A program made the position numbers and the translations under genes. Shown here piece by piece: positions 40,330-59,225 of a stretch of 64,000 nt of DNA (the first letter of the stretch is position 1; each line of letters begins with the position of its first letter). A model generated the notes under the pieces. That model worked only from the letters and a program-made list of their open reading frames with translations, had not been told where the DNA came from and made no database searches. The stretch spans positions 1,305 to 65,304 of the forward strand of contig SKFZ01000010.1 in the NCBI GenBank assembly GCA_007117695.1, in the 5' to 3' direction. The DNA comes from Bacilli bacterium (GTDB taxonomy: Bacteria > Bacillota_I > Bacilli_A > RF39 > UBA660).

Positions 40330-41511
40330 TTACTTATTTAATACTTTTATTCCAGGGAGATCTTTTCCTTCAAGCAATTCTAAAGATGCCCCTCCTCCAG
40401 TTGAAATATGTGTTATTTTGTCTTTAAACCCTAAGTTTATGGCTGCAGAAGCCGTGTCGCCACCACCAACAATTATTGTTTTGCCAGTATCTACAATCCC
40501 TTTAAAAACTTCTTTTGTTCCTTTTGAAAAACTATCATGCTCAAAAACGCCTAAAGGCCCATTCCAAACAACTGTTTTACTTTCAGATAAAACTTCTAAA
40601 AAATTAGCTATAGTTTCATCACCAATATCAACACCCATCATATCCTCGTTTATGGAATCTGAACTTGCGTAATAACCTAATTCATCATCGATTGATTTAG
40701 CTAAAATGTTATCTACAGGCAAAATTATTTTATCAGAATACTTAACTAACATCTCTTTGCAAAAATCAATATATTCTTCTTCTAAAAGGGAATTCCCTAC
40801 TTCATAACCTTTTGCTTTTAAAAAAGTATATGCCATTCCTCCGCCGATAATAATATTATCTACTTTATGAACTAAATTTTCTATAACACCAATTTTATCA
40901 GAAACTTTTGCACCACCTAAAATTAGTGAAAACGGCTTTTCTGGACTTTCTAAAACCTTTTTAAAATTAATCAACTCTTTTTCAATTAAAAAACCTACAC
41001 CTACATCACTTAAGTTATTAGCGATTCCAACATTGGAAGCGTGGGCTCTATGAGCAGTACCAAATGCATCGTTTATGAATATTTCTCCAAGAGATGCCCA
41101 GTACTTGCCAAGTGTTTGATCATTTTTACTTTCAGCTTTTTCATTTAAATCTTCAAATCTTGTGTTTTCAACTAATAAAACATCCCTATCTTTCATATTA
41201 GAAATGCTATCTTCAAGTTTAATCCCTCTTGTTTCACCAGGAAAAGCAACTTGCTTATTCAAATAAAAGCTTAACTTCTCTGCAACAATCCCCAATGACA
41301 ACTTTTCTTTATCTTCAGGAGTTTTAACGCGCCCCAAATGCGAAAATATAATAACTTTAGCCCCTTGATCTAGTGCATAATTTATTGTTTTTAAGCTTTC
41401 TTTTAACCTGTTATCGTCTTTAATTTCACCATCTTTAATAGGAACGTTAAAATCACACCTAATTAACACTTTTTTTCCTTTTAATTCAAAATCTTTTATA
41501 GTTTTAATCAT
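40330..41511 (-). CDS. pgk: Phosphoglycerate kinase
   Basis: 393 aa with motifs RCDFNVP and GGGDTA...GGGASLE. Confidence 0.95.
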   Translation of the reverse strand: MIKTIKDFELKGKKVLIRCDFNVPIKDGEIKDDNRLKESLKTINYALDQGAKVIIFSHLGRVKTPEDKEKLSLGIVAEKLSFYLNKQVAFPGETRGIKLEDSISNMKDRDVLLVENTRFEDLNEKAESKNDQTLGKYWASLGEIFINDAFGTAHRAHASNVGIANNLSDVGVGFLIEKELINFKKVLESPEKPFSLILGGAKVSDKIGVIENLVHKVDNIIIGGGMAYTFLKAKGYEVGNSLLEEEYIDFCKEMLVKYSDKIILPVDNILAKSIDDELGYYASSDSINEDMMGVDIGDETIANFLEVLSESKTVVWNGPLGVFEHDSFSKGTKEVFKGIVDTGKTIIVGGGDTASAAINLGFKDKITHISTGGGASLELLEGKDLPGIKVLNK

Positions 41512-42512
41512 AAATCCTCCTGAAAATCAAATCTTTTAACATCTACTTGATAATTTCTATTTATTTCCTCGCTTGATAAAGAACGATTATATACTCTTAT
41601 TGAATGAATTTCGCCTTCAAAATAATTCGACCCATCTCCTATTATGAAATGATTATCATCACCAATTTGAATATAATCGCTTACCTCTTCGCTATTATCA
41701 TTCAAATATATAATAGAGTTATTTAATGAACCATTATTTATGAGTGCTAGCCTATAGGGCTCACCCATACTATATGATGAACTATATCCATGTGTATTAG
41801 ATGATCCATAATGCCAAAGAGGGTCAGTAGAAGAAAATTCTAAGTATGCAAAATCTCTAATACCTACATAAGACGTTGATGTTCCACTTTGCCTCAAAAC
41901 CAACTCTATGGTAAAGTCTTCACCTAGTAAACTTGGTTTTATTTTTCTTGCAGAATTTAAAACATCATTGCTATTTTCAAATTTTAAACTATTCACAGTC
42001 CATCTATCTTTATCGATTAATATTATATCATTATTAGAGCTGGTTAAATCTTGCATATAATTATTAAACCTAAAACCTTTTCCATTATTGTTTATGGCAT
42101 CATAATGAAGCACAAGCCCTTCTTGTTCATACATGTCAATTCCTGCTTTAAATCTTTCAAATGAATAATCTATCATTCCACTTGAAAGCCTTTCTGCTAC
42201 TATAGTAAAATTATTATTAACCGTGTCATCAGTTTCAGGATCAATCACCGTTTGCCTAATAAGACCTTTTTCTTCTAAAAACTTTATCGATATAAATGCT
42301 TTTCCTGATTCAACATTTAACTGTTCAAAATAATTTCTGTTTGACTCAATATATGATTCTGTTGCCATATACAAATTTTGCAAGTAGGTATCAAAGTCAT
42401 TTTGATTTGTTCTTCTGAATGTATTTATTATTGTTGGTACAGAAATTATAAGCACAATTGCAAGCACAACTATAACACCTAATAATTCAACTAATGTAAA
42501 ACCCTTTTTCAT
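41508..42512 (-). CDS. Prepilin-type (class III signal peptide) modular pilin-like protein with a C-terminal LamG/ConA-like lectin module
   Basis: The N-terminus MKKG|FTLVELLGVIVVLAIV carries a canonical prepilin peptidase site (G-1, F+1, E+5) and a hydrophobic helix. The C-terminal 200 aa ends with the Laminin_G_3-type motif GEIHSIRVYNRSLSSEEI. The stop overlaps the pgk ATG (ATGA). Confidence 0.6.
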   Translation of the reverse strand: MKKGFTLVELLGVIVVLAIVLIISVPTIINTFRRTNQNDFDTYLQNLYMATESYIESNRNYFEQLNVESGKAFISIKFLEEKGLIRQTVIDPETDDTVNNNFTIVAERLSSGMIDYSFERFKAGIDMYEQEGLVLHYDAINNNGKGFRFNNYMQDLTSSNNDIILIDKDRWTVNSLKFENSNDVLNSARKIKPSLLGEDFTIELVLRQSGTSTSYVGIRDFAYLEFSSTDPLWHYGSSNTHGYSSSYSMGEPYRLALINNGSLNNSIIYLNDNSEEVSDYIQIGDDNHFIIGDGSNYFEGEIHSIRVYNRSLSSEEINRNYQVDVKRFDFQEDL

Positions 42513-42535
42513 AATTCACCTACTTTACTAGTTTA

Positions 42536-42560
42536 AAAAGATTAGTTAAACTAATCTTTT
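42536..42560 (-). promoter_or_regulatory. AT-rich hairpin immediately after the gap stop codon. It could be an intra-operon attenuator or an RNA processing element.
   Basis: Near-perfect palindrome aaaagattagtt(a)aactaatctttt spanning the gap stop. Only about 46 nt separate gap from the pilin-like gene. Confidence 0.4.
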
Positions 42561-43566
42561 ATAGTTCGTTTATAAATTTTGCAAGTCTAACCATTTGAGC
42601 GCTATAGCCCATCTCATTATCATACCAAGCAACAACTTTAACTAGTTGCTTACCATCGACTTCCAATACTTCAGTTGAAAGACCATCAACCAAGCTTCCA
42701 TAAGTACTACTAATTACATCGCTTGAAACAATTGGGTCTTCTGTATATTTAAAAGTATCATTTTGGTTATTTTCAAATAATTTATTAATTTCTTCTTTCG
42801 AAGTGTTTTTGTTTAATTCAATTGTTAAATCAACTACTGAACCCGTAGTTGTTGGAACTCTAAGTGCACTACCATCTAGTTTTCCTTTTAATTCAGGTAT
42901 AACAAGCCCTATTGCCGCTGCTGCACCAGTCGAAGAAGGAACAATGTTAGCAGCACCTGCTCTTCCTCTTCTTGCTTTATGACCTTTTGAATGAGCCACA
43001 TCTAAAATCGTTTGATCATTAGTATAAGCATGAACTGTAGTCATAAAACCTTTCACTACTTTAAACTCCTTGTTTAACAAATCAACTACTGGAGCCAAAC
43101 AATTAGTTGTACAACTTGCCGCACTAATAACTTGTTCACTTCCGTCTAAAACATTTTCATTAACGCCGAATACAACAGTTTTTAAGTCTCCTTTTCCTGG
43201 TGCCGAAATAATTACCTTCTTAGCACCAGCTTCAATATGAGATTCTGCTTTTTCCTTTTTTGTAAATAGCCCCGTACATTCAAAAACTTGATCCACTTCT
43301 AATTCACCCCAAGGTAAATTTTTAGGGTCCATCTCGCTATAAACTTGTATTTTTCTACCATCCACTATAATGCTATCTTCTGTGTTTGATATAGAATCTT
43401 GTTTATATCCTCTATGACTAGTGTCATATTTTAAGAGATATGCTAATTGTGCTGCATCGGTTAAGTCGTTAATCGCTACAACTTCAAAATTAGGATCATC
43501 TTCCATAATTCTAAATACTAACCTTCCTATTCTTCCAAAACCATTAATTGCTACTTTAATTTTCAT
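42559..43566 (-). CDS. gap: Glyceraldehyde-3-phosphate dehydrogenase
   Basis: 335 aa with NGFGRIGR Rossmann motif and the ASCTTNCLAP active-site Cys. Confidence 0.95.
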   Translation of the reverse strand: MKIKVAINGFGRIGRLVFRIMEDDPNFEVVAINDLTDAAQLAYLLKYDTSHRGYKQDSISNTEDSIIVDGRKIQVYSEMDPKNLPWGELEVDQVFECTGLFTKKEKAESHIEAGAKKVIISAPGKGDLKTVVFGVNENVLDGSEQVISAASCTTNCLAPVVDLLNKEFKVVKGFMTTVHAYTNDQTILDVAHSKGHKARRGRAGAANIVPSSTGAAAAIGLVIPELKGKLDGSALRVPTTTGSVVDLTIELNKNTSKEEINKLFENNQNDTFKYTEDPIVSSDVISSTYGSLVDGLSTEVLEVDGKQLVKVVAWYDNEMGYSAQMVRLAKFINEL

Positions 43567-45220
43567 AAATACTTCCTCCTATAAATTCTCTTAATATTGA
43601 ATTTCCTGGCACCATCTCACTTGGAAGTGGCAAGAAATTTCTTAAAAATTTAAGCAACCTTATTGCTTCATGATACATTGGGTCTTCTTCTGAGACTGTA
43701 TATAAAAGCGGCTCCGCATAAATTTTTAAAACACTAATTTCATAAACTAACGATGAGTTTATTATTGCATCTACATCTCTTTGAAATGGGTAAATAAATA
43801 TTTCTTCGCCTTCTTTTATCTTCTCCCACATTTTAAGAGTATCGGATGCTGTATATCCTCGATATTTATTATCTCTTACAATTCTTCTTATCTTTCTAAC
43901 ATCTGTCGCATGAACTCTATTATGATTATCTACATTTATGTGAGTTAATGGACTAATAAATATTTTATATTTATTTTTATCTTCTATAGAGACAGTTAAT
44001 TGGTCATTCAATGCATGTAGTCCCTCTACAATAATAATATCATCATCTTTTATTTGAAGACATCTGTCTTTATATTCTCTTTCTCCTGTTAAAAAATTAT
44101 ATTCAGGGAGCAAAACAGTTTCCCCTTCTAATAATTTAGTCATATGCTTATTAAATAAGTCTATATCTATCGCATTTACAGACTCAAAGTCTAAGTTACC
44201 ATTTTTATCCCTAGGCGTATCTGCTCGATTATGGAAATAATCATCTATAGATATTTGATGAGTTCTAAGCCCTCTACTGTTTAAATATATTTCTAACCTT
44301 TTAGCAGTAGTAGTTTTACCACTGGATGTCGGACCTGCTAAAAGAACTAGCTTAATGTTATTATGATGCTTATATATTTTATCAGCAACTGTTCCAAGTT
44401 GTTCTTCATAATAAGTTTCGCAAACATTAACAAAGTTTTTATACTTTCCTTTAGATATTAATTTGTTAAGTTCTGGAGCATTACTTACTCCAATAAATTT
44501 TCCCCAATCAGTATACTTTATATAAGAATCAAACAATATTTTATTGTGGTTATAATCGCTAGTATATTCTGGGTTCTCATAGTCTGGATAATTAATTACA
44601 AACCCTCTCTCGCTAGTTTTAGCAAGTTTAAATTCATCTATAGCACCCGTAGATTCTGCTAAATCAATAAAAAAATAATCAAAAATATTATCTAACTTAA
44701 ACAATGTTACATAACTATTACTTATATATTTTAGTAAATCTACTTTGTCATTTTGTTTTTTCTTTCTAAAATACTCAATCGCCTCGACGCGGGCTACTTG
44801 CATCTTTTTAATAGGTAAGTCTTTTTTTATTATCTTATTTAACTCTTTTTCTAAATCATCCAACAACTTTTCAGTTATTACTATCCCAGGTATTTCACAA
44901 TAAACCCCCTTATCCATAGAGTGTTCTATAATTATGTCTCGATCTTCTCCGAGCATTTTCTTAACAGCTAATACTAACATAAAATGCAAAGTTCTTTCAT
45001 AAGCAATATTACCTATTTTAGATGACCTATCATAAAAATCAACTAATGAATCTGAATGAACCTTTTCACTTAGATGGCATAAGGTGTTTTTTAAAGAGGC
45101 TACTAATATAGGATATTCATATTTGCTTTGATAATCTTTTGCAACTTCTCTTAAACTAACAGAATGATTATATTCTTTGTACTCTAAGTTTTTATAGTTT
45201 ATTTTTATTTTGCCCTTCAT
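43556..45220 (-). CDS. Uridine kinase/phosphoribulokinase-family P-loop kinase fused to an N-terminal ThrRS-like (TGS/second additional domain) region
   Basis: P-loop AGPTSSGKTTTAKRL and Udk-like blocks (ISIDDYFHNR, IIIVEGLHALN). The N-terminal 260 aa resembles the threonyl-tRNA synthetase N-terminus. It overlaps the gap start by 11 nt. Confidence 0.65.
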   Translation of the reverse strand: MKGKIKINYKNLEYKEYNHSVSLREVAKDYQSKYEYPILVASLKNTLCHLSEKVHSDSLVDFYDRSSKIGNIAYERTLHFMLVLAVKKMLGEDRDIIIEHSMDKGVYCEIPGIVITEKLLDDLEKELNKIIKKDLPIKKMQVARVEAIEYFRKKKQNDKVDLLKYISNSYVTLFKLDNIFDYFFIDLAESTGAIDEFKLAKTSERGFVINYPDYENPEYTSDYNHNKILFDSYIKYTDWGKFIGVSNAPELNKLISKGKYKNFVNVCETYYEEQLGTVADKIYKHHNNIKLVLLAGPTSSGKTTTAKRLEIYLNSRGLRTHQISIDDYFHNRADTPRDKNGNLDFESVNAIDIDLFNKHMTKLLEGETVLLPEYNFLTGEREYKDRCLQIKDDDIIIVEGLHALNDQLTVSIEDKNKYKIFISPLTHINVDNHNRVHATDVRKIRRIVRDNKYRGYTASDTLKMWEKIKEGEEIFIYPFQRDVDAIINSSLVYEISVLKIYAEPLLYTVSEEDPMYHEAIRLLKFLRNFLPLPSEMVPGNSILREFIGGSIYEN

Positions 45221-45253
45221 ATTATAACCCCTATTCTATATTACAATTTTAGC

Positions 45254-45283
45254 AAAAAAAAAGTGTTTTGTCACACTTTTTTA
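45254..45283 (-). terminator. Rho-independent terminator after ezrA
   Basis: Stem aagtgt/acactt with loop tttgtc. It is flanked by an A9 run and a T6 run. Confidence 0.6.
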
Positions 45284-47026
45284 ATCCTCTTTATAAAATG
45301 ATGATAATTTGTCATATATACCTGGTTCAACACGATTTAAAGCATTTATAGTCACTTCTAAAGACTTATAATAATCACCTTTATAAAAGAGTGATTCTGA
45401 TACAGTTAGATTTTTATCAAGTTCTTCAGTATTTGTTCTATACCTATTACCATATACAATCGCCATTTCGCAAAATTTAGCAGTTTTCATTAAATCTTTA
45501 GTTTTAGAAAATAATTTAAGCGACAAATCCCTAGCTGTATCAACTCTAGTATTTAAAACACTAATTGTAATAGGTGTTTTTTTAAGTTCTTTTACCACTT
45601 CTTTAATAGCATCTTGAGCCTCATTTAATTCGACAAAATAACTTCTTGGAATAACTGGGAAATTATATTCTCTTATTTTATTTTTAGACTCTTTTAAAAT
45701 TTGTTTAACTTCTTCTAATTGTTGTCTAGCTCTCAGTTCATCTTCTCTCATCGTCCCAATTGCATCAAGTGAATTATCAAGTCTATCTTCAATTTCAACA
45801 AGCCTTACTTTCAAATCTTCAATTTCACTAGTCAACTTAGAATAAGCAAATGTGTTATTACTAGTATGATTTTTTAAAAGTTTATAATCTTCATTCAATT
45901 TTTCAACATCACTATGAACTTCCTCTAACAAACTCATATCATCATCCGAAAAATTATATACATTCTTTATATCGTCAATTTGCGAATAAATTTCTTTCAT
46001 CAAGTTATTGATTTTATCTAGTTTTTCTTTAAATGTTTTGTTTGCTTCCTCATAATTTTTTCTATTAATTTTTTCTCTTTCAAAATCATCGAAAACACCA
46101 TCAAAATACTCTAATAATAACTTAAGTTCAAAAAGACTATCTTCTAAATTTAAAATGTTGGCTCTAGTTAAAATGTCTGCAATTTTCTTCTTTGCTTCTT
46201 CAATATTATAATCAACATTTAAGTAATCCAGTGGATACCCTTCTTCTAACATTTTGTGATAAACTTTTTCCACTTCATTAATTTTTTTAGGAATTAAATC
46301 ATTAGCTAGTAAATCAATATTCGGTACTTCATCAACGACAACTTCCATATGCTTTAATGTATCATCAATTGATTTTATAATTGTAGTAACTTCGCTATAC
46401 TCATTATTTTCCATAGCATTTTCAAAATCATCAAATTTATATGCTATGTTCTCAAATTGTATTGAAACAGGCTTCTTAATAGAACCAAAATCTTTTTCAG
46501 TATCTTTAAATTTTTTATATAAATCACGATAATTAGCTTTCAAACCAGTTATTATAGAACGGTTTTTCTCCTCGCAAGTTGTTATTTCTTTTATTTCATC
46601 TAATAACTTCTCAGCAGTCTCACGAACTCTATAAATTTCCATCTCTAACTTAACTATTTTATGGGTTGCCCTATTATAACCATTTTGGTTTACAGCATGA
46701 TCAGCTTCAATAAGCATATCTGCCAATTTTGGTAATTCCTCATTTTGAATCAAGTCAAGCCTTGCTCGCCAACTATTATATTTGTTTTCTAATTTTTCAT
46801 TTTTTAAAAATGAGTCTATTTTTGCAAGTTCTGACCTAATTGGTGTTCCTTCAATATCATTTTTATCTATTTCTAACTTTTCTAAGTTTTTCTTTACCTT
46901 TTTATTAGAAATGCTTTGTATTATATTTAGTACAATTACAACTAAAATTATAGCTAGCAAAAACATCGAAAACATGAATAACATAATAGCGTCCATTTCT
47001 ACCACCTCGTATAATAATGATATCAT
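45281..47026 (-). CDS. ezrA: Septation ring formation regulator EzrA
   Basis: N-terminal transmembrane anchor plus about 560 aa of coiled-coil/spectrin-like repeats. It is divergent from rpsD, as in Bacillus. Confidence 0.8.
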   Translation of the reverse strand: MISLLYEVVEMDAIMLFMFSMFLLAIILVVIVLNIIQSISNKKVKKNLEKLEIDKNDIEGTPIRSELAKIDSFLKNEKLENKYNSWRARLDLIQNEELPKLADMLIEADHAVNQNGYNRATHKIVKLEMEIYRVRETAEKLLDEIKEITTCEEKNRSIITGLKANYRDLYKKFKDTEKDFGSIKKPVSIQFENIAYKFDDFENAMENNEYSEVTTIIKSIDDTLKHMEVVVDEVPNIDLLANDLIPKKINEVEKVYHKMLEEGYPLDYLNVDYNIEEAKKKIADILTRANILNLEDSLFELKLLLEYFDGVFDDFEREKINRKNYEEANKTFKEKLDKINNLMKEIYSQIDDIKNVYNFSDDDMSLLEEVHSDVEKLNEDYKLLKNHTSNNTFAYSKLTSEIEDLKVRLVEIEDRLDNSLDAIGTMREDELRARQQLEEVKQILKESKNKIREYNFPVIPRSYFVELNEAQDAIKEVVKELKKTPITISVLNTRVDTARDLSLKLFSKTKDLMKTAKFCEMAIVYGNRYRTNTEELDKNLTVSESLFYKGDYYKSLEVTINALNRVEPGIYDKLSSFYKED

Positions 47027-47068
47027 AAAATCAAATTTTTTACATCTTTTTTTGTTCCTTGATTTAGG

Positions 47069-47097
47069 TTGACTATTTAAGCGAAAACCTATATAAT
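47069..47097 (+). promoter_or_regulatory. Consensus sigma-A promoter of rpsD (TTGACT, 17 nt, TATAAT)
   Basis: Sequence ttgactatttaagcgaaaacctatataat. Confidence 0.7.
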
Positions 47098-47099
47098 TG

Positions 47100-47266
47100 T
47101 TTATGCGTATTCATTAGCAGCGTTAGCTTGAAAATAGTAACGTGTTTATTACCTAAAAGGTCATTTGAGTAACTTGTGCTGCAAAGCGAAAATTCAAAAA
47201 TAAACACCCTATTATTTGGCGAGTTAACCTCAATGTTTAAGCAAAAAATTATTGAGGAGGGATTAA
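47100..47266 (+). promoter_or_regulatory. rpsD 5' leader with an SD-sequestering hairpin. This is a likely S4 autoregulatory element.
   Basis: Roughly 160-nt leader. A 7-bp helix cctcaat (47228-47234) / attgagg (47251-47257) overlaps the GAGGAGG ribosome-binding site 6 nt before the ATG. Confidence 0.5.
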
Positions 47267-47869
47267 ATGTCAAGATACACAGGTCCACAATATAGAAAAT
47301 CAAGAAAATTTGGTTTTTCTATTCTTGAAACTGGTAAAGAGCTTTTGAAAAAGCCATATAAGCCAGGTCAACACGGACAAAAAAGATCTAAAAAAATGTC
47401 GAACTACGGAATCCAACTACAAGAAAAGCAAAAAGTTAGATTTATGTATGGACTTAGCGAAAGACAATTTAAAAGAACATTCGAAGATGCTTCTAAACTT
47501 AAAGGCGTTCATGGTGAAGATTTCTTAAAATTGTTGGAAAGTCGTTTAGACAATGTAGTTTATCGTCTTGGTTTTTCTAACACAAGAAAAGGTGCTAGAC
47601 AATTAGTAAATCACGGACATATTTTAGTGAATGGTAATAAAGTTGATATTCCATCATACAGAATTAAACCTAATGATGTTATTGGAATAAAAGAAAAATC
47701 AATTAACCATCCAAGTATCAAAGCTTCATTAGAAGCTATGAATCAAAGAGTTGATTTTGTTACATTTGATGACGCTAAGCTTGAAGGAACTTTTGTAAGA
47801 TACCCTGAGAGAAGCGAACTAAATTCAGATATTAATGAAGCTCTAATCGTTGAATATTACAACAGATAA
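47267..47869 (+). CDS. rpsD: 30S ribosomal protein S4
   Basis: 200 aa, [16 protein letters not shown]..., with an S4 RNA-binding domain. Confidence 0.95.
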
Positions 47870-47900
47870 CAAAAAAACACGTTTAACGTGTTTTTTTTTA
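47870..47900. terminator. Bidirectional terminator between convergent rpsD and tyrS
   Basis: A7 run, then stem aacacgtt/aacgtgtt, then a T9 run. Confidence 0.65.
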
Positions 47901-49124
47901 TTGCCACTTAATTAATGAATATTTTTTCTTCCCTCTTTTTAATATACATACACTTTCTTTAAGCATATCTTCAGCATTCAAAACTTTTTCAACATCTAAT
48001 TCCTTAATGCCATTAACTTTAACAGATCCATTTTTGATGAATTCTCTTGCCTCTCTCTTGCTGCTGGCTAATTTAGATTCAATCAAGCAATCTACCAAAA
48101 GTTTTGGTCCATTAATATTTATTGAATCAACACCCCTAAATGCAACTAAAAGTTCATTTAAAGTTAATGTTTCATATTTTTCATCGAATAAAACTTTTGT
48201 AACTTTTAAAGCTTTTTCAAGTTCTTCTTCTCCATGCAAATCTCTAACTACACTTTCCGCTAATATTTTGTGCGGCTTTCTCAAGTGAGGCTCTTCTTTT
48301 AAAGAGATTTCAAGTTCATCAATTTCTTCCTTATTTAAGAAAGTAAATTTTTTCAAATAATCTACAACTTTTTCATCTTCGGTGTTTAAGAAAAATTGAT
48401 AAAGCTCATAACTAGAAGTTTTTTCTTTGTCTAACCAAATTGTTGCCCCTTCACTTTTACCTATTTTAGAACCGTCTGAATTTGTCATTAATGGATAAGT
48501 CATGGCAAAAACTTGATTTCCAAGTTTTTTTCTAATTAACTCCACACCTGATGTAAGGTTACCCCATTGATCTTGTCCGCCAATTTGAAGTGCACAATTT
48601 TCTGTTTCGTATAAATAAAGAAAATCAAGAGCTTGCATAATCATATATGAAAATTCAGTATACGTTATACCCACTTCTAACCTACTTTTCACTACATCTT
48701 TAGCAAGCATATAAGGGACAGGAAAATACTTTCCATAATCTCTCAAATAGTCAATAAAATTAATATCTTTACACCAGTCGTAGTTGTTCACCACTTTAAA
48801 TCCAAATAAACCTTGAATTTGATTCCTAAGCGAATTGAAATTACTTTCAATAACTTCTTTTGAAACAATTGGTCTTTCCGAACTAGGTCGGGGATCCCCA
48901 ATCAAACCAGTTGCCCCACCTACTAAAATAATAGGATTATGCCCATAATTTTGTAATCTTTTTGCTAAAATTAAAAACATTAAATGACCTATATGTAAAC
49001 TATCGGCAGTCGGATCAGTACCAATATAAAAAGTCATTTTTTCGTTATTTAACTTATCAATTAAATCCTCACTAGTTTTATTTGCTACCATATCTCTGTA
49101 TTTTAAATCTTCAAATAATTTCAT
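47898..49124 (-). CDS. tyrS: Tyrosyl-tRNA synthetase. Start moved to MKLFEDLKY with an AAGGAGG ribosome-binding site.
   Basis: HIGH motif (DSLHIGHL), KMSKS-like motif (KIGKS) and a C-terminal S4 domain. The AAGGAGG sequence lies 9 nt upstream of the ATG at 49124. Confidence 0.9.
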   Translation of the reverse strand: MKLFEDLKYRDMVANKTSEDLIDKLNNEKMTFYIGTDPTADSLHIGHLMFLILAKRLQNYGHNPIILVGGATGLIGDPRPSSERPIVSKEVIESNFNSLRNQIQGLFGFKVVNNYDWCKDINFIDYLRDYGKYFPVPYMLAKDVVKSRLEVGITYTEFSYMIMQALDFLYLYETENCALQIGGQDQWGNLTSGVELIRKKLGNQVFAMTYPLMTNSDGSKIGKSEGATIWLDKEKTSSYELYQFFLNTEDEKVVDYLKKFTFLNKEEIDELEISLKEEPHLRKPHKILAESVVRDLHGEEELEKALKVTKVLFDEKYETLTLNELLVAFRGVDSININGPKLLVDCLIESKLASSKREAREFIKNGSVKVNGIKELDVEKVLNAEDMLKESVCILKRGKKKYSLIKWQ

Positions 49125-49353
49125 TTTCTTTTTCCTCCTTTTATTTAAACAAAAAAATATTATGCCCAAGGACGAGTGTAACCCGCGGTACCACCTTAGT
49201 TCATAATATTTTATGCTCTTATACTTTTAACGCAAGTTAACGATTTGGCTCCACGTGTGTAATTCATTTAATAACATTTAAGCATTCACACTACCATGCT
49301 CTTTCTTTAAAAAAATTATTAAGCTACTTTTCACATATCAATGCCAATTAATT
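49125..49353 (-). promoter_or_regulatory. T-box leader (tRNA-Tyr responsive riboswitch) upstream of tyrS
   Basis: The minus strand contains the conserved T-box sequence AAGGTGGTACCGCGGG (plus coordinates 49182-49197) and a single UAC (Tyr) candidate specifier in AAUUACAC (49259-49261). Confidence 0.75.
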
Positions 49354-49360
49354 TAAATTA

Positions 49361-49388
49361 ATTATATCATCATCTCAATTATTGTCAA
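49361..49388 (-). promoter_or_regulatory. Sigma-A promoter for the tyrS leader (TTGACA, 16 nt, TATAAT). It overlaps the 3' end of rbfA.
   Basis: Minus strand reads ttgacaataattgagatgatgatataat. Confidence 0.5.
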
Positions 49389-49720
49389 TCATTCAATGAA
49401 TCGATAATTTTTTCGATTTTATTTCCATAGTCTACTGATTCGTCATAAACAAATTTCAACTCGGGTATATGCTTCATATCATGTCTTTCGAAAAGTTTTG
49501 ATCTAATAAAGCCCTTAGCTCTATCTAGACCTTTTAGCACATCATCCTTTTCTTCATCGTTTAACACTCTAACATAAACTTTAGCTATACTCAAATCACT
49601 TGTAATTTTAACATCAGTGATTGTTACATCTTTAACTTTTTCATCTTTAACTTCACTTGCTAAAATCATACTAATTTCTCGCATAAAACTTTTATTTAAA
49701 CGTTCAACTTTAAGACTCAT
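49385..49720 (-). CDS. rbfA: Ribosome-binding factor A
   Basis: 111 aa, KH-like RbfA family, last gene of the nusA-infB operon. Confidence 0.9.
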   Translation of the reverse strand: MSLKVERLNKSFMREISMILASEVKDEKVKDVTITDVKITSDLSIAKVYVRVLNDEEKDDVLKGLDRAKGFIRSKLFERHDMKHIPELKFVYDESVDYGNKIEKIIDSLND

Positions 49721-49727
49721 ATTAACA

Positions 49728-51821
49728 CTACCTTTCTACTTCAACAAGTTCATACGATTCAATAATATCACCTTGTTTAATATCATTATAATTTTCAATA
49801 GTAATACCGCACTCAAGTCCTTTTTTAACCTCTTTTACAGTATCCTTTTCTCTTTGTATAGACTCTATAATACCATCGTAAATTACAATATCATCTCTAA
49901 TTATTCTAACCTTTGATTTGCTTTTGACTTTTCCATCTATAATATAACTTCCTGCAATTGTTCCAACTTTAGAAAACTTAAATAATTGTCTCACTTCTGC
50001 AGATCCTAAAACCTTTTCTTCAAATACCGGCTCTAGCATCCCTTTCATAGCTTGTTCCATGTCTTCAACAATTTTATAAATTATATTATAAAGTCTAATT
50101 TCAACTCCATTATGTTTTGCATAGTCTTGAATTTTTTTGTTTGGCCTAACATTAAAACCAATGATTACAGCATTCGAAGCTTTTGCTAAAACGATATCAC
50201 TTTCAGTAATTCCTCCAACACTACTTCTAACTACATTTAACTTAACTTCTTCAAGCTCTAATTTTTCAAGCGTAGCTTTTATAGCTTCAGCACTACCATG
50301 AACATCTGCTTTAACAAGAACATTCACTTCCTTAGTGCCTTCCTTTATTTTAGAAAAAACATCTTCTAAGCTGATCGAAGTCGATTTAGGTGCCTGCTCT
50401 TTCATTCTAGATTCTTTCTTCCTAATTTCGCCGACATTTCTTGCTTCTTTTTCATTTTCAAAAGCCATAAATTTATTACCTGCAAAAGGAACTCCATTCA
50501 AACCTGTTATTTCGACTGGTTGAGATGGAGAAGCACTTGCTATGTCATTGCCTAAATCATCTCTCATTGTTCTTACTTTACCGTAATAACAACCTACAAC
50601 TAAAGGATCTCCAAGCCTAAGTGTTCCATTTTGAATTAAAAGCGTCACCACTGGTCCTAAACATTTATCTAGCCTTGATTCAACAACCGTACCTAGAGCA
50701 TACCTATTTGGATTTGCTTTATATTCTTGCATTTCTGAAATTAGTAAAATGTTTTCTAGTAATGCATCAATTCCATCACCATTAATTGCTACAACTTTAG
50801 AAAACAAAGTATCTCCACCCCATTCATCTGGCATAAGACCGTATTCACTAAGTTCTGTCATAATTCTCTCACTATTTGCGCCTGGTCTATCCATTTTATT
50901 TATTGCAACAATAATTGGTACACCTGAAGCTTTTGCATGATCTATCGCCTCTTTAGTTTGTGGCATAACACCATCATCTGCAGCAACAATAATAATAACA
51001 ATATCAGTAATACTTGCTCCCCTAGCACGCATCTCTGTAAATGCCGCATGCCCAGGTGTATCAATAAACGTTATCTTTTTGCCGTTATACTCAGTTTGAT
51101 ATGCGCTGATTGATTGAGTAATCCCTCCAGCCTCACCTTCAGCAACACTTGTTTTTCTTATGGTGTCTAAAAGAGTTGTTTTACCATGGTCAACATGCCC
51201 CATAATAGTTACAACTGGCGCTCTTTCAACCAAATCTTCTTCTTTATCAAATGCAACAAATTCTTCAAAATTAGTAATGTCTGCACACTCTTGCTTTTTA
51301 AGTTCTTTATCATAATCTGAAACTATTAATTCTGCTTCTTCAAAAGTAACAGTTGTATTTACATTAACAATTTTTCCTAGTAAAAATAATTTCTTAATAA
51401 CTTCTGCTGACGAAACTAAAAGACCGTCTGAAAGTTCCTTTATTGTCATACCATCTTTATAAAGAACAATTCTATTGTCACAAGTAATATCGTCTGAACT
51501 AAGTTTATCTCTCTTTTTATAAATTTCTTTTTTTTGAGCCATAAACTCTTCCTTGTTTGCTTTGTTTGGTCTGCTTATTTTAGACGACTTTTTCACATCT
51601 TTAGTAGCACTTTTCACTACTTCCTCTTCTAATTCTTCATCATCAGTGTCATCTTCTACTTCAAGCTCTAAATTATTGTCAAGCAATGTTATTGCTTCAT
51701 CATTAAGCATATCTTCTCCATTAGAAACATCAATATCTAATTTACTACACAAATTCAAAATCTCTTCAACTGACTTTGAAACATCTTCTGCATATTCTAA
51801 GACACTCATCATAAAAATCAC
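49728..51821 (-). CDS. infB: Translation initiation factor IF-2
   Basis: GTP-binding domain ([21 protein letters not shown]) and C-terminal beta-barrel domains. Confidence 0.95.
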
Positions 51822-51829
51822 CTCTTTCC

Positions 51830-52093
51830 TTATTGTTTTATTAATTTATCTAAATCATCATATATTGAATCTGATAGTTCAGCTTCAAAAAAGCGATTTA
51901 AAATCTTTGTTTTTTTTGCTTTTTGAAACACTAGGGCATCTTTTTTTAAATACACGCCTCGCCCATTAGCTTTAGAAGTTTCATCAACAAAAATATCCCC
52001 TTCTTTGTTCTTAACAATTCTAACCAATTCCATTTTAGGTAATCTTTCTTTAGTCACAACACAACTTCTCATTGGCACTTTGCGCTTTTTCAT
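51830..52093 (-). CDS. ylxR: YlxR/RnpM family (DUF448) RNA-binding protein
   Basis: 87 aa with the MRSCVVTKERLPKMELVR motif, located between nusA and infB. Confidence 0.75.
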   Translation of the reverse strand: MKKRKVPMRSCVVTKERLPKMELVRIVKNKEGDIFVDETSKANGRGVYLKKDALVFQKAKKTKILNRFFEAELSDSIYDDLDKLIKQ

Positions 52094-52101
52094 CTAACCA
52101 C

Positions 52102-53229
52102 CTAACTTTCTTCTTCTTTTATGTTAATTCCCATTTCTCTAGCTTCTTCGTAAGTTTTAATGTCTAATTTATGTTTCGTTAATCTAGCTGCAAGCCTAAC
52201 ATTTATTCCTTTTTTACCTATAGCAAGCGATAAATTTTCATCATTTGCTATAACAAGAGCCTCACTAGAGTCTTCACTTGCTAAAAAAACATAAATGTCT
52301 TTAGCAGGACTTAATGCATTTTTAATAAAGGTTACTTTATCCTCATCATATGGTATGATATCTACTTTTTCATTACCTAATTCATTTAAAATGTTTGAAA
52401 TTCTACTACCTCGTTCACCTACACATGAACCAATTGCATCAACACGTGGGTTTTCAGAATAAACAGCAATTTTAGTTCTAACCCCCGCTTCTCTAGCGAC
52501 ACTATACACTAAAATAACTCCTTCGTTTATTTCTGGAATTTCTTTTTCAAAAAGTCTTTTAACAAAACCATAATGTGATCTAGATAGTAAAATTAAAGGC
52601 CCTTTAGTTGTAGATTCAACTTTAGTAACATAAACTTTTATACTAGAACCCATTTTTATGTTTTCACCAGGTATAATTTCTGTTTTTGGTAAAACTCCTT
52701 GGGCTTTCCCTAAGTCTATATAATAGTTTTTGGCATCTTCCATAGAAGCCTTACCAACTAATAATTCATCAACTTTATCTTGGAATTGTTCAATAACTTT
52801 TTCTCTTTCAGCTTCTCTAATTTTTTGAATTACAACTTGCTTAGCAGTCGATGCTGCTACTCGTCCAAAATCATATGGTGTAACTTCTTCTTCAATAGTT
52901 TCTCCAACTTTGATAGTAGGAACTATTTTTTTTGCTTCTGAAAGTTCAATTGGAACGATTGGTTCAATTTCTTCAACGCTATCTTCTTCTTCAACAATTT
53001 GATCTTTTTCAATTTCACTATATCCATCTTCAACTACAGTTCTTACCGAAAAAACTTTAATATCCCCAGTACTTCTGTTAATATCTACTCTAACGTTTGA
53101 CATAGCATTATAATTTTTTTTATATGCCGATGTTAATGCTAATTCCATTGCATCATATATTACATCTTCACTAATATCTTTTTCAGAAACAACTGTTTCT
53201 ACTGCTTTTTTAAACGCTTTATTGTCCAT
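52102..53229 (-). CDS. nusA: Transcription termination/antitermination factor NusA
   Basis: N-terminal domain plus S1 plus two KH domains. 375 aa with no C-terminal acidic repeats, as in Firmicutes. Confidence 0.95.
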   Translation of the reverse strand: MDNKAFKKAVETVVSEKDISEDVIYDAMELALTSAYKKNYNAMSNVRVDINRSTGDIKVFSVRTVVEDGYSEIEKDQIVEEEDSVEEIEPIVPIELSEAKKIVPTIKVGETIEEEVTPYDFGRVAASTAKQVVIQKIREAEREKVIEQFQDKVDELLVGKASMEDAKNYYIDLGKAQGVLPKTEIIPGENIKMGSSIKVYVTKVESTTKGPLILLSRSHYGFVKRLFEKEIPEINEGVILVYSVAREAGVRTKIAVYSENPRVDAIGSCVGERGSRISNILNELGNEKVDIIPYDEDKVTFIKNALSPAKDIYVFLASEDSSEALVIANDENLSLAIGKKGINVRLAARLTKHKLDIKTYEEAREMGINIKEEES

Positions 53230-53482
53230 CTTCTATTTCTCCTTTTTCTTTAGAGCTCACTTCAAGAATGTAGCTTTCTTCTATCAAGTCTTCATCAAAC
53301 ATCGGATCTATTGCTTTACTAACTAATTCACAATCCTCTAAATTAACATATCCTGATTTATCTATAGTTATTCTCAAAATATTAAGCCCTTCTTCTTTTA
53401 AATAATCTACACCATCTAAAACAAATCCCAGTTCATTGATTTTATTTTCTACCATTTTTTTCACTTTTTTTTCTATATCCAC
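53219..53482 (-). CDS. rimP: Ribosome maturation factor RimP, N-terminal domain only (87 aa)
   Basis: Matches the RimP N-domain through the YILEVSS block (equivalent to YFLEVSSPG). It ends there and overlaps the nusA start. No C-terminal domain is encoded. Confidence 0.55.
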   Translation of the reverse strand: MDIEKKVKKMVENKINELGFVLDGVDYLKEEGLNILRITIDKSGYVNLEDCELVSKAIDPMFDEDLIEESYILEVSSKEKGEIEDGQ

Positions 53483-53506
53483 ATTTACCCTCCACGACTA
53501 GATTAA

Positions 53507-53548
53507 AGAGTGGAGAAATCCCCCACTCTAGATACAAATATTATAACA
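53507..53548 (-). promoter_or_regulatory. rimP-nusA operon extended -10 promoter (TGtTATAAT) followed by a leader hairpin
   Basis: Minus strand reads tatgTTATAATatttgtatctAGAGTGGgggatttctCCACTCTttaat. A 7-bp stem plus a short U tract lie in the 5' UTR. Confidence 0.45.
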
Positions 53549-53627
53549 TAAAATAGATGTAAATGGAAATTAAATTGAACATTAATGCTTTTTTTTGTTA
53601 TAATGATTATTATATGGAGATGATAAT

Positions 53628-54332
53628 ATGAAAAGTAACACTTTTGACTTAAAAAAATATGCAAAAAGCGCCTCGCTAGGAATTGCTTCGTTGGGGGTTT
53701 TCTTGCTAGGGCAATTTATAATTGCACTACCCTTGATTATTTTTAATATTGAAGGTAGTATCATGAGAACAATACTATTGCTCTTGGGACAAACATTTTT
53801 GGCCTTGGTTTTAATATATATATTCAAGGAGCGCTTGTGGGAAGACTTACTAGACCTGCTTGAAAATCACGAGTCCTATTTTAAAAAATATTTCAAATAT
53901 TGGTTTTATATTTTAATAGGAATGGCTCTTAGCAATCTTTTGATAATACCATTTTCAGATGGAATAGCCCAAAACCAAGAGAATGTTTTAGGACTACTTA
54001 GAGATATGCCTGTTTATATGTATTTTTCAGCAGTTTTTTTTGCTCCTTTAACAGAAGAATTAGTGTTTAGACAAGGTTTTAGACAAGTTATATTAAACGA
54101 CAAATTATTTATATTGCTATCTGGACTATCATTTGGTGTTGTCCATATAATCAGTTCAAATGATATAATTAGTCAACTGCCTTTTTTACCTGCTTATACT
54201 ATCCCAGGCCTAATATTTGCTTATCTTTTAGTAAAAAGTAAAAATATTTTTGTTCCGATGGGAATACATTTTGTTCATAATGGTGTTTTAGTTTCTCTTC
54301 AAATTATAGCGATGATATTTGGAGGAATTTAA
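53628..54332 (+). CDS. CPBP family (CAAX-type) intramembrane metalloprotease
   Basis: EELVFRQG motif, a second His motif (FGVVHI) and the HFVHN block. About six transmembrane segments. Confidence 0.75.
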   Translation: MKSNTFDLKKYAKSASLGIASLGVFLLGQFIIALPLIIFNIEGSIMRTILLLLGQTFLALVLIYIFKERLWEDLLDLLENHESYFKKYFKYWFYILIGMALSNLLIIPFSDGIAQNQENVLGLLRDMPVYMYFSAVFFAPLTEELVFRQGFRQVILNDKLFILLSGLSFGVVHIISSNDIISQLPFLPAYTIPGLIFAYLLVKSKNIFVPMGIHFVHNGVLVSLQIIAMIFGGI

Positions 54333-54334
54333 AT

Positions 54335-55192
54335 ATGGAAAATAAGAACAAAAAATTACTTACATTATTAGTGATTTTCTTTGTTTTAGTAATTTCATTT
54401 TTCCTATATGCAAGACTAGTGGCGACTAGCGGATTATTTGTAAAAGAGTACAAAATAACTAATGAAAAAATTTTAGATGATTTTCACGGTTTTAAAATTG
54501 TTCATATATCAGACTTACATTACGGAACATCTGTAGGAATAAATGAGATTGAGGACATTGTTAATAAAATAAATTATATCAGCCCAGATATAGTACTGTT
54601 TACTGGTGACTTAATAGATAGAACTATTGACTTAAGTTCAAACGAAAAAAACACTATAATAAGTGCTTTTCAAAAAATAGAACCTAATCTTGGGAATTAT
54701 GCTATAACTGGAAAACATGATGTGGAAAATGATAATTACTATGAAATTTTAAAAAAATCAAATTTCACTTTATTAGATGATGAAATCGAAACTATTTACA
54801 AAAATAATACAACGCCCATTTTATTAACCGGTCTTTCGTCAACTAATAAAAGCAATGATTTAGAAAGTAAGATGAGTGCTACAAATGAATTTTTAAAAGA
54901 AGATGAAAACGAATATTATCATATTTTAATGATTCACGAGCCCGATTTAGTAAATGAATTAGATTTAAATAAATTTGATCTTGTTTTAGCAGGTCATTCT
55001 TTAAACGGTCAAGTTAGACTGCCAATTATAGGTCCGATAATTTTACCAGAAGGGGCTAAAACATACTTTGAAAATAAATATATAGTAAATAACACGGAAC
55101 TTTATATTTCAAGCGGTGTCGGCACAACAAGGATGCAACTTAGATTATTTAATAGACCATCAATAAACTTCTATCGTTTAACAAATAAATAA
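54335..55192 (+). CDS. Membrane-anchored calcineurin-like metallophosphoesterase
   Basis: N-terminal transmembrane segment plus metallophosphoesterase motifs (HISDLHYG, GDLID, GKHD, GHSLNGQ). Confidence 0.7.
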   Translation: MENKNKKLLTLLVIFFVLVISFFLYARLVATSGLFVKEYKITNEKILDDFHGFKIVHISDLHYGTSVGINEIEDIVNKINYISPDIVLFTGDLIDRTIDLSSNEKNTIISAFQKIEPNLGNYAITGKHDVENDNYYEILKKSNFTLLDDEIETIYKNNTTPILLTGLSSTNKSNDLESKMSATNEFLKEDENEYYHILMIHEPDLVNELDLNKFDLVLAGHSLNGQVRLPIIGPIILPEGAKTYFENKYIVNNTELYISSGVGTTRMQLRLFNRPSINFYRLTNK

Positions 55193-55200
55193 GAGATAAA

Positions 55201-57512
<2,312 letters not shown>

Positions 57513-57527
57513 CTACTTATATTATAA

Positions 57528-57556
57528 CAAAAAAACAGTATAAAAATACTGTTTTA
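57528..57556 (-). terminator. Rho-independent terminator downstream of the pilin-FGE-like gene. The ligA promoter TGtTATAAT follows.
   Basis: Stem acagtat/atactgt with loop aaaa, flanked by A and T runs. The minus-strand TTGTTATAAT plus AGGTGA precede the ligA ATG. Confidence 0.65.
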
Positions 57557-57559
57557 ATT

Positions 57560-59161
57560 TTATTTGTTATGAATAGCAATACGAAAGCCTCTTGATGAAC
57601 TAGCACCACCATTGACAGCAGTAAAGGAAAATATACTAGCCCCAGGGTCCAAACTGTTAAGTCCACCCCTAACATACCAAGAATTATCATGGTCTCCTCT
57701 AGCAGCTACCATTAAAGCATCTTCCCAATTAAAAGTTTCCCCAAGAGCATCACCTAATTTACTATGTGAGAAGTCTTCTATGTCATCATTAAAATCATAC
57801 TTATCTATAAGAGGTTCTAAAGAAGGATTGTTTATATTTGGAGATAGTTCGCTAGCGGATTCTTCATCAGATGTAAAACCAGATTGCGATATTCTAAGTG
57901 ACTCATTTCCCGATGTTTTGACTCCAGCCATTACATATTCATAAGCCCCACCAGCCATATCATAAACACCATACACATTCCCTGTGGTACTTGTTTTTTG
58001 TCCATTTTCACTATTGTATTGGTTGCAATCAGAATTAGCTGGCCCAAGTGCCGAATCAGAAGCGCATCCAGTTAAAAACGAGTTATTTCTATTCGACCAT
58101 ATTTGTTCGTCACTACCGTATACAGACCTTGATAAATACACTACTGCTCCCCAGTCTATATTTCTTAAAAGCCTTGACTCAGCCTCATCTCCATTCAATC
58201 CATATATATTACCATGTTCATTAAAATCTCTTGCAACAACGAAGGCTTTAGATAACTCAATTCCTCTCCACATAATACTATTTGGTTTTATTATTGCGCT
58301 ATCAAGTTCAGGCGAACTAACAACACCTTCAGCAGCAGTAGTAGCACCTTCAAATCCGGTTGTATATTTTCCAACCCATAACCCATTTAATTCATCTTCA
58401 CCAAAGCTAAATGCTGGATGAGTTAACCATTCATTTTCTAAATTTCCAAGTGATTTTTCGGTTGATATTCCTTCAAAAATCACATCAAACATTACATCTT
58501 CATATGCCATTGCTGAAAAACTTGAGTTTAAAATTCTATACCTATATCTTGGTATCCAAACAAAGTATGCTAATACATCTTCGTCATCAACTTCCTCACC
58601 AGGTGAAATGTTTTGATAATAACCCCTGCTAGTAGCTGTTAACAAAGCAGCATTGGCCCACATTTTATCACTGTAGTCATACCAACGCGAATTAAGGTCC
58701 GCTTTTACCCATGTATCTTGTTCTTCATCATACATTATTGGTAGCATACCCTCGACTAGTTCAGGTCTTGAAGCACCTGATGGATCTATATATCCACACT
58801 TGCCTTGGTTTAATAGTTCATACTCAATATTATCGATTTCATTTATTTTTATTTTAACTTCTTTTAACTCTGATATTTCTTCATTTGTGTTTGGATCTAA
58901 AAGTGGACTTGGTAATATCCCTGAATTAAAAAGTTGACGAAGAGTTATACAATACTCCCTGTCTTCAATCAACGGATATTGATCTCTGTTATCGTCCATA
59001 TATCTCCTTGTAGAAGCGTAAATAAGCTTTAAAGTATCATCACCGACACTTGTTCTTATAGTTCTAATTTGATTAATAATAGGCGGAACTACTATGAGTG
59101 AAATAATTCCTAAAATAACAATAACTCCTAGTAACTCGACTAGTGTAAACCCTTTTTTCAT
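57560..59161 (-). CDS. Prepilin-type (class III signal peptide) modular pilin-like protein with a C-terminal FGE-sulfatase/C-type-lectin-like module
   Basis: The N-terminus MKKG|FTLVELLGVIVILGIISLIVV is a canonical prepilin leader. The first 15 aa are identical to the gap-pgk pilin-like protein. The C-terminal third shows FGE-sulfatase (SUMF1-like) signature blocks: GNVYGVYDMAGGAYEYV (compare GNVWEW), RGGLNSL and a terminal RGFRIA. This assignment is tentative. Confidence 0.55.
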   Translation of the reverse strand: MKKGFTLVELLGVIVILGIISLIVVPPIINQIRTIRTSVGDDTLKLIYASTRRYMDDNRDQYPLIEDREYCITLRQLFNSGILPSPLLDPNTNEEISELKEVKIKINEIDNIEYELLNQGKCGYIDPSGASRPELVEGMLPIMYDEEQDTWVKADLNSRWYDYSDKMWANAALLTATSRGYYQNISPGEEVDDEDVLAYFVWIPRYRYRILNSSFSAMAYEDVMFDVIFEGISTEKSLGNLENEWLTHPAFSFGEDELNGLWVGKYTTGFEGATTAAEGVVSSPELDSAIIKPNSIMWRGIELSKAFVVARDFNEHGNIYGLNGDEAESRLLRNIDWGAVVYLSRSVYGSDEQIWSNRNNSFLTGCASDSALGPANSDCNQYNSENGQKTSTTGNVYGVYDMAGGAYEYVMAGVKTSGNESLRISQSGFTSDEESASELSPNINNPSLEPLIDKYDFNDDIEDFSHSKLGDALGETFNWEDALMVAARGDHDNSWYVRGGLNSLDPGASIFSFTAVNGGASSSRGFRIAIHNK

Positions 59162-59225
59162 ATGTGATCCTCCTACTATAAATATACCACATTCATAAAA
59201 ATTAAAAAAGCACTTGCGTGCTTTA
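59162..59225 (-). promoter_or_regulatory. Terminator for the pcrA transcript, followed by an extended -10 promoter and AGGAGG ribosome-binding site for the pilin-FGE-like gene
   Basis: Minus strand reads aaAGCACgcaaGTGCTtttttaat ... TGGTATATT ... AGGAGG atcacat ATG. Confidence 0.5.

Follow-up and report, generated by a model that had tools for sequence, protein, structure and literature searches.

Why should two proteins with a type IV prepilin signal be encoded within core housekeeping operons rather than in a pilus locus? This question is raised by a 64-kb stretch of contig SKFZ01000010.1 from an uncultured, monoderm, low-GC Bacilli bacterium. The whole stretch analyzed, hereafter the window, has 30% GC and carries nearly all of its genes on the minus strand. 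Two of these genes, X1 (334 aa) and X2 (533 aa), are the subject of this report. The explanation that we favor, and consider reasonably probable, is that X1 and X2 are modular minor pilins, processed by a prepilin peptidase, that present a lectin-type (X1) and a C-type-lectin (CLec)/FGE-fold (X2) binding module and are expressed from core operons. What is shown concerns the sequences, their predicted folds, the families to which they belong and their conserved synteny, whereas processing, incorporation into a filament and ligand binding are inferred.

X1 and X2 both begin MKKGFTLVELLGVIV, with residues 1–15 identical. A degenerate MKKGFTLVE pattern matched the window at positions 42486–42512 and 59135–59161 only, both on the minus strand and both being the starts of X1 and X2, and it gave no match in 100 shuffles. 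A six-frame scan of the window revealed no other N-terminus of the form G-F-x-x-x-E. In both proteins the signal, MKKG/FTLVELLGVIV, is a canonical class III signal with Gly–1, Phe+1, Glu+5 and Pro+22. Both passed the cut-offs of PF07963 (N_methyl; 23.4 for X1 and 23.6 for X2 vs. 21.2) and of TIGR02532 (19.8 and 23.3, respectively, vs. 16.3). Conservation of Gly–1, Phe+1, Glu+5 and Pro+22 is complete or reaches at least 90% in each of the family alignments (A1 for X2 and A2 for X1); in the latter, F5 and E9 are invariant, and G4 and P26 nearly so.

The predicted structures agree with this assignment. In the AlphaFold2 models of X1 (pLDDT 81.9) and X2 (pLDDT 94.5, pTM 0.90) a continuous α1 helix of ∼50 residues (residues 7–57) would be followed by a small β head of three to four strands, in keeping with the long helix packed on a β-sheet head that pilins have. 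Both family profiles matched pilins of solved filaments (E = 1e-11 to 1e-4), namely Streptococcus sanguinis PilE1, Geobacter PilA-N, MshA, GspG and Escherichia coli PpdD. With the X1 family profile, matches to solved type IV pilins ranged from E = 5e-11 to 1e-3; the X2 family profile matched PilE1 (8pfb), Geobacter PilA, MshA and GspG, and also the variable protein TaqVP. The profile alignments to solved pilins span up to ∼100 residues. In type IV pilins, the importance of Glu+5 and Pro+22 lies in the assembly of filaments and not in anchoring. The N-terminal parts of X1 and X2 are pilin modules, more than transmembrane anchors. An earlier note on this DNA, made from its letters alone, had described both proteins as having class III signals, a pilin-like head and identical 15-aa N-termini, and these points hold; the finding that it named as a refutation, a short convergent transmembrane anchor that lacks the pilin fold, is contradicted by the profile matches to solved pilins.

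The relationship between the two proteins is less close than that note assumed. Eight of the first 15 codons differ between X1 and X2, every change being synonymous (37 of 45 nt identical). The identity of the 15 residues has therefore been kept by selection, and is not the result of a recent duplication or gene conversion, in agreement with the old divergence that had been proposed. When residues 1–99 were compared by BLASTP, X1 and X2 were 38% identical (E = 1e-18), mostly due to the signal and the N-terminal part of α1 (α1N); when the hydrophobic N-terminus was left out (residues ∼31–120), identity was 21% (E = 1e-4). Among GTDB species genomes, 103 stretches contain the 13-residue core KGFTLVELLGVIV, as do 39 metagenome stretches, and nearly all of them are from uncultured Bacilli or 'Tenericutes'. 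Most of these matches are small pilins (120–140 aa) encoded beside housekeeping genes, and Walker-A screens of those loci gave mainly FtsK. Because this core is widespread across the clade, the N-terminus shared by X1 and X2 is a clade-wide pilin consensus. Furthermore, the pilin module of X2 is 45% identical over 115 aa (E = 6e-32) to a stand-alone pilin of 130 aa on a gut-metagenome contig (L131). The X2 pilin module is thus nearer to a stand-alone pilin of another organism than to X1, and the claim that the two are paralogs of one family was too strong. X1 and X2 are two different pilins, each having gained its own module; for X2, the likeness to a free-standing pilin is the mark of a module that was added to an entire pilin.

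The C-terminal module of X1 is of the ConA/LamG lectin type and is probably glycan-binding. PF13385 (Laminin_G_3) matched residues 258–318 just above its cut-off (27.7 vs. 27.6 bits). In the model, the pilin head would run directly into a single β-sandwich, with no Ig module. Foldseek matched this model to a trans-sialidase lectin domain, the botulinum/tetanus Hc-N domain, domain 4 of the GH43 enzyme AbnA, and S. sanguinis PilC (7OA8/7OA7). When the X1 family profile was used with hmmsearch, CBM40 sialidase or sialic-acid-binding modules (4c1w, 1sli and 6er2) and LamG domains were also matched. In view of the CBM40-like matches, the ligands of X1 may be sialylated or other acidic glycans. The X1 family is narrow, with ∼8 full-length relatives.

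The best Foldseek match of X2 is TaqVP (5vf4; E = 9e-8), a variable protein of a diversity-generating retroelement (DGR), followed by TvpA (E = 1e-3), PorK and EgtB (E = 0.28), all of which have FGE-type C-type-lectin folds. The X2 family profile also matched TaqVP by sequence (E = 3e-3). These results bear out the pairing of a ConA-like module in X1 with a CTLD/FGE-like one in X2 that had been read from the letters. X2 has full-length relatives by the thousands in metagenome-assembled genomes (MAGs) of uncultured Bacilli/'Mollicutes', for which the best annotation is 'prepilin-type N-terminal cleavage/methylation domain-containing protein'. When the 409-aa module was used as the sole query, 3346 representatives of 50%-identity clusters were recovered with an E-value cut-off of 1e-3, and 889 of these remained when the cut-off was 1e-30. 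The module lies below Pfam thresholds, and the true family is therefore far larger than a domain-based catalog shows.

The X2 module is not confined to pilins. Among 135 new representatives, a class III N-terminus was found in only 46 and a KGFAISG-type N-terminus in 7, and many have a hydrophobic stretch followed by (S/T)YA(L/M/W)F(S/T). The latter N-termini resemble SipW/TasA-type signals, and the KGFAISGxLY type is devoid of Glu+5. Giant proteins of 3.7–4.5 kaa bear five to six copies of the module.

The positions of X1, X2, their modules and their neighbors are compiled in Table 1.

Table 1. Features of the X1 and X2 regions (window coordinates; position 1 is the first letter of the window).
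Feature	Coordinates	Strand	Basis or remarks
pgk, downstream of X1	40330..41511	-	coordinates, translation
X1, prepilin-type modular pilin, 334 aa	41508..42512	-	pilin module + ConA/LamG lectin module
X1 ConA/LamG-like β-sandwich module, residues ∼130–334	41511..42125	-	ends in PF13385 motif RVYNRSLSSEEINRNY
X1 pilin module, residues 1–125	42138..42512	-	leader MKKG, F+1, E+5, A+14, P+22, helix 7–57, small β head
gap (GAPDH), directly upstream of X1	42559..43566	-	translation
ligA, 47 nt downstream of X2	55533..57512	-	translation
X2, prepilin-type modular pilin, 533 aa	57560..59161	-	pilin module + FGE/C-type-lectin-fold module
X2 C-terminal FGE/CLec-fold module, ∼409 aa	57563..58789	-	no Pfam or NCBIfam model above threshold
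X2 residues 495–527 (WYVRGG...GFR), conserved scaffold + variable residues	57581..57679	-	column conservation in alignment A1
X2 pilin module, residues 1–122	58796..59161	-	leader MKKG, F+1, E+5, G+14, P+22, helix 7–57, β head
Terminator-like hairpin + T run, 3′ of the 50-codon ORF	59207..59224	-	terminator scan; putative function
50-codon ORF, small protein with one transmembrane segment, between pcrA and X2	59227..59379	-	translation MRRFFDWFEGAMEPVKEFIVDNHNNIGFWVIVFFGAILISKFVYSELSRR
pcrA helicase, upstream of X2	59382..61463	-	translation

As the earlier note had stated, both genes lie in core housekeeping operons, and this placement is conserved in relatives. The spacer between gap and X1 is 46 nt and contains an AT-rich hairpin; the TGA stop of X1 overlaps the ATG of pgk by 4 bp (ATGA), so that X1 and pgk are probably translationally coupled, and tpi follows pgk. 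On the X2 side, the 50-codon ORF begins 2 nt past the pcrA stop, with its ribosome-binding site within pcrA, encodes a single hydrophobic segment and recurs, with 60% identity, at the corresponding site of the nearest relative (L088). X2 itself is preceded by its own ribosome-binding site (AGGAGG) and a possible extended –10 element (positions 59162–59200). X2 and ligA are probably co-transcribed; the next terminator-like site lies past ligA, at 55191–55219.

The gap-X1-pgk order was also found in L006, L007 and L008, with X1 38–57% identical, and in a rabbit-gut MAG (L154) that has a version of X1 with two LamG domains. Likewise, the pcrA-X2 order was found in L088, L001 and L055 (X2 65–44% identical). 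Across the relatives that share these gene orders, the X proteins are only 30–65% identical. Identities of 90% and 74% for gap go with 56% and 38% for X1, and identities of 86% and 68% for pcrA go with 65% and 44% for X2. The X proteins are far more diverged than their syntenic neighbors, as expected of a surface protein held in place. The nearest GTDB species representative is SKIH01000025 (Bacilli bacterium CSBr16_55, from soda-lake brine; 75% nucleotide identity). In distant relatives, pilin-type genes were found after rpmF, between nrnA and pgk, between engB and der, after ftsK, between recD2 and pheS, and between rnhB and nfo. The scatter of pilin genes among housekeeping genes, which the note had surmised from two loci, is a property of the whole clade.

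Several other genes touch these loci. A 554-aa PRK (uridine-kinase-like) domain protein is encoded at 43556–45220 (minus strand), where its ORF overlaps the gap start by 11 nt, and each relative inspected (L006, L008, L012, L054 and L154) has it directly before gap. In L054 (positions 1287–2857), two proteins with YAAF(S/K)T N-termini are encoded immediately downstream of gap. A heliorhodopsin gene lies between the X2 orthologue and ligA in L001 (positions 11605–12378), a 532-kb Joint Genome Institute contig of a relative.

No pilus or competence assembly gene had been noticed in the window, and tblastn searches of it gave the same picture: neither E. coli HofB, HofC and PppA (E ≤ 0.1), nor CpaE, CpaF, TadB, TadC and TadE of a related MAG (E ≤ 1e-4), nor Bacilli PilC and PilD (E ≤ 0.01) found a match. 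The translations of the window's ORFs read as housekeeping, and the Pfam tables of relatives cover its right half. Machinery was found elsewhere in the clade. In a gut Bacilli MAG, an X2 homologue (P0081; 34% identity over its full length) lies directly upstream of pilC and pilD, in the order dnaG-rpoD-trmK-X2-pilC-pilD, with comEC 8 kb away; by Pfam, the pilC product has two T2SSF domains and the pilD product an A24_N_bact and a Peptidase_A24 domain. Two gut/rumen Bacilli MAGs that have the same pilin N-terminal motif carry CpaE-CpaF-TadB-TadC (+TadE), with an N_methyl pilin encoded a few genes away. The L102 CpaF, used as a protein query, was at least 75% identical in >120 clusters of gut Bacilli, with no link to the lineage of the window. 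When the literature was searched for pilins of RF39 or of 'Tenericutes' MAGs, only an unrelated pilus paper on Clostridia (TANB77) turned up.

The arrangement of these machinery loci was also recorded. An X2-family gene, an opposite-strand yqfQ-like gene, pilC (586 aa) and pilD occupy positions 784–5457 of L042 (= L155 10001–14644, and L156); this contig ends at an IS605-type transposase, has comEC 8 kb upstream and shows no ATPase gene. In L151 (8432–13038) and L102 (4321–7865) the Tad-like set lies between rpoA-rplQ/sigma-factor genes and yebC-queH-pilin-yceD-rpmF, and there the Tad-type ATPase accompanies GFTLVE-type, not Flp-type, pilins.

On the modular-pilin explanation, X1 and X2 would each be made as a prepilin whose leader consists of the four residues MKKG. 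Cleavage after the Gly and methylation of Phe+1 would fall to a prepilin peptidase whose gene lies elsewhere in the genome. The hydrophobic α1 helix, with Glu+5 and Pro+22, would then allow extraction from the membrane and assembly into a type IV filament or a short pseudopilus. Like their analogues PilB and PilC of S. sanguinis, X1 and X2 would most likely be low-abundance or tip subunits, because their C-terminal modules are bulky. These modules, lectin-type in X1 and of the FGE/C-type-lectin fold in X2, would be the working parts; in X2, the C-terminal RGG...GFR segment is likely to be the surface that binds the ligand. X1 expression would ride on the gap-pgk operon, and X2 would probably have its own promoter, with ligA after it. 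Since both genes are carried by core operons, both proteins would be made constitutively.

Four points weigh against this explanation: (i) the searches described above recovered neither a prepilin peptidase nor an assembly ATPase nor a platform protein from the 64-kb window; (ii) in ∼1.1 Mb of related loci, machinery was found beside pilin-type genes in three contexts only, namely L042 (with L155/L156), L102 and L151; (iii) subunits as bulky as these may fail to polymerize at all; and (iv) the X2 module is also found behind non-pilin N-termini, so that the pilin is one of several carriers.

In the strongest of the rivals, the prepilin signal serves for display without filaments, and no long pilus is formed, as with the Sulfolobus bindosome or the prepilin-signal proteins of Planctomycetes/Verrucomicrobia. 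We consider this rather unlikely. The dispersal of the genes in housekeeping operons with no pil locus speaks for it, as do the many large prepilin-type proteins encoded on contigs of relatives and the occurrence of the X2 module behind other N-terminal signals for export or anchoring, a pattern that points to surface display of a generic kind. It is opposed by the conservation in both families of Glu+5 and Pro+22, which established knowledge relates to assembly, and by the retention of a complete pilin head. Archaea offer a precedent in binding proteins with a class III signal (PMC3047682), but the bindosome itself needs a type IV-like assembly system, so that the two explanations differ in degree, not in kind.

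A second rival concerns X2 alone, which would be a surface-anchored enzyme of the FGE or sulfoxide-synthase type instead of a binding protein. The module does give a weak match to PF03781 (FGE-sulfatase), EgtB is among its fold matches, and many of its residues are invariant (H248, K265, N170, S391 and T393). The PF03781 score, however, is 13.9 bits, under the cut-off of 23.3, and the top structure and sequence matches are non-enzymatic DGR variable proteins (E-values of TaqVP and EgtB given above). In segment 495–527, which we take to be the counterpart of the variable ligand-binding region of CLec-fold DGR variable proteins, the scaffold residues RGG, AG-F-F, G and FR are conserved, and the interleaved positions vary among homologues. 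There is no Cys in residues 498–527 (RGGLNSLDPGASIFSFTAVNGGASSSRGFR), between RGG and GFR, and the segment after RGG is the site of the catalytic Cys pair of FGE. A Cys-free segment of scaffold plus variable residues points to a binding surface more than to an active site like that of FGE. With PF03781 below threshold and no Cys in the post-RGG segment, we judge an enzymatic X2 very unlikely.

The same likeness could mean that X2 is a DGR target gene with a hypermutated C-terminal region, given that TaqVP and TvpA are its closest solved structures and share a scaffold-plus-variable C-terminal segment. This was rejected as highly improbable: no direct repeat involving positions 57560–57760, and hence no template-repeat-like copy of the X2 3′ end, was found in the 64 kb, and a motif scan of the window and ∼150 related loci gave no ORF resembling a reverse transcriptase. 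That the shared N-terminus arose by chance, or that X1 and X2 are not real genes, has nothing in its favor except that an AT-rich composition makes long ORFs easier to find, and it is refuted, to the point of having a negligible probability, by the 0/100 shuffles, the full-length homologues (thousands for X2, ∼8 for X1), the conserved synteny and the high-confidence models.

We also put forward, tentatively and as something short of probable, a wider reading of these data. Streamlined uncultured Bacilli would use the prepilin signal as a general surface-display route for a wide range of modular binding proteins, whose genes sit singly in core operons and not in a pil locus, and X2 would represent a large unmodelled extracellular domain family on interchangeable carriers. 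The clade that uses this route may extend from soda-lake relatives to gut MAGs of 'Bacilli/Tenericutes' with small genomes, from both animals and humans, and the sites may include gap-pgk, pcrA-ligA, engB-der, ftsK, rpmF and recD2-pheST. The X2 family may then comprise at least 3,300 50%-identity clusters, akin to the fold with which DGR variable proteins bind ligands, and may be borne by at least three carriers: the pilin, a hydrophobic segment with 'YAxF(S/T)', and the 'KGFAISG' type.

If X1 and X2 are modular minor pilins, they provide two concrete adhesin/lectin candidates for an uncultured lineage, and they indicate that modular pilins can stay fixed in central-metabolism and DNA-repair operons over long evolutionary periods. 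Constitutive expression would be implied, and for X1, speculatively, glycolysis might be coupled to a pilin that binds glycans. Of the two, the X2 module offers the better lead, being a very large family, with members in gut MAGs, that neither Pfam nor NCBIfam models above threshold and that domain-based surveys of pilins and adhesins therefore miss. The current understanding of type IV filaments is not overturned, and we regard the finding as modestly interesting: the protein class is already known, the placement in housekeeping operons is unusual yet conserved, and the X2 module family is large and unmodelled.

Three further features of the window were observed. The prfB gene carries an ordinary +1 programmed frameshift site (AGGGGG TCT CTT TGA C; ∼28013–28031, minus strand) upstream of ORF 26989–28035; RF2 in fact begins with the ATG at ∼28086, and the ORF list shortens prfB. 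Between prfB and nrdG, a 558-aa membrane-anchored protein (28439–30115, minus strand) has a DUF4015 putative glycosyl-hydrolase domain (E = 2e-69) and is a probable further surface carbohydrate-active protein in a housekeeping stretch. At 39058–39609 (minus strand), a 183-aa protein has only the C-terminal DNA-binding domain of Spo0A (PF08769) after a short degenerate receiver-like N-terminus. This gene is conserved after tpi in L006, L008 and L100, and the distant L154 has a full-length Spo0A and SASP genes; the 183-aa protein may be a remnant of lost sporulation.

How do X1 and X2 compare with known systems? The ComG pseudopilins (ComGC/GD/GE/GF) share the N-terminal motif and give weak N-terminal NCBIfam matches, but X1 and X2 fall outside the ComG equivalogs (NF040999, NF040982, NF041013 and NF041002): the best score, with ComGC, was 28.8 vs. 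75, and the matches span only the N-terminal ∼60 residues. Unlike X1 and X2, the ComG proteins are small, have no extra modules and are encoded in the comG operon. The DGR variable proteins TaqVP (5VF4) and TvpA (2Y3C) share with X2 the fold and the RGG...GFR C-terminal scaffold with variable positions, but they have no pilin N-terminus, and X2 has no retroelement, template repeat or reverse transcriptase in the searched DNA.

Planctomycetes, Verrucomicrobia and Lentisphaerae have large families of prepilin-signal paralogs, with hundreds of proteins (TIGR02532/DUF1559 annotation). The Sulfolobus bindosome consists of sugar-binding proteins with a class III signal (PMC3047682). Both resemble the present case in that large binding proteins with this signal are encoded away from any pilus locus. 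Both the bindosome and the Planctomycetes-type families differ in that they belong to another domain of life or to other phyla and carry other passengers, whereas X1 and X2 keep a full bacterial pilin head with Glu+5 and Pro+22.

The idea of modular pilins for surface display is itself not new, and both architectures have been cataloged. In Dataset S1 of Raynaud et al. (2021; PMC8179133), IPR012902-PF13385 is the commonest modular pilin architecture (229 proteins), and IPR012902-IPR005532 (FGE) is listed with 8 proteins. X1, by PF13385 and fold, and X2, by the FGE/CLec fold in structure and profile, are modular pilins in the sense of Raynaud et al. (2021), X2 being of the rare FGE type. In contrast to the cataloged proteins, the X2 module is sub-threshold in Pfam, and the catalog is silent on genomic context.

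The closest counterpart of X1 is S. sanguinis PilC, which has been shown experimentally to be a glycan-binding lectin pilin and has been modeled at the pilus tip (PMC9934059). X1 and PilC (7OA7/7OA8; Foldseek E ∼5e-7) both combine a class III signal with a short pilin module and a lectin module of the ConA kind. PilC differs in having an extra Ig-like module and is ∼150 residues longer (52.8 kDa when processed), whereas X1 has 334 aa and no Ig module; furthermore, the pilC gene lies in a 22-kb pil locus together with the machinery (PMC9934059), whereas X1 lies between gap and pgk. X1 thus stands outside the PilC-type lectin pilins, taken as pilin, Ig and ConA-like modules encoded in a pil locus. 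Since identity in the structural alignment is only 10–12%, X1 is an analogue of PilC built to the same design, rather than its orthologue.

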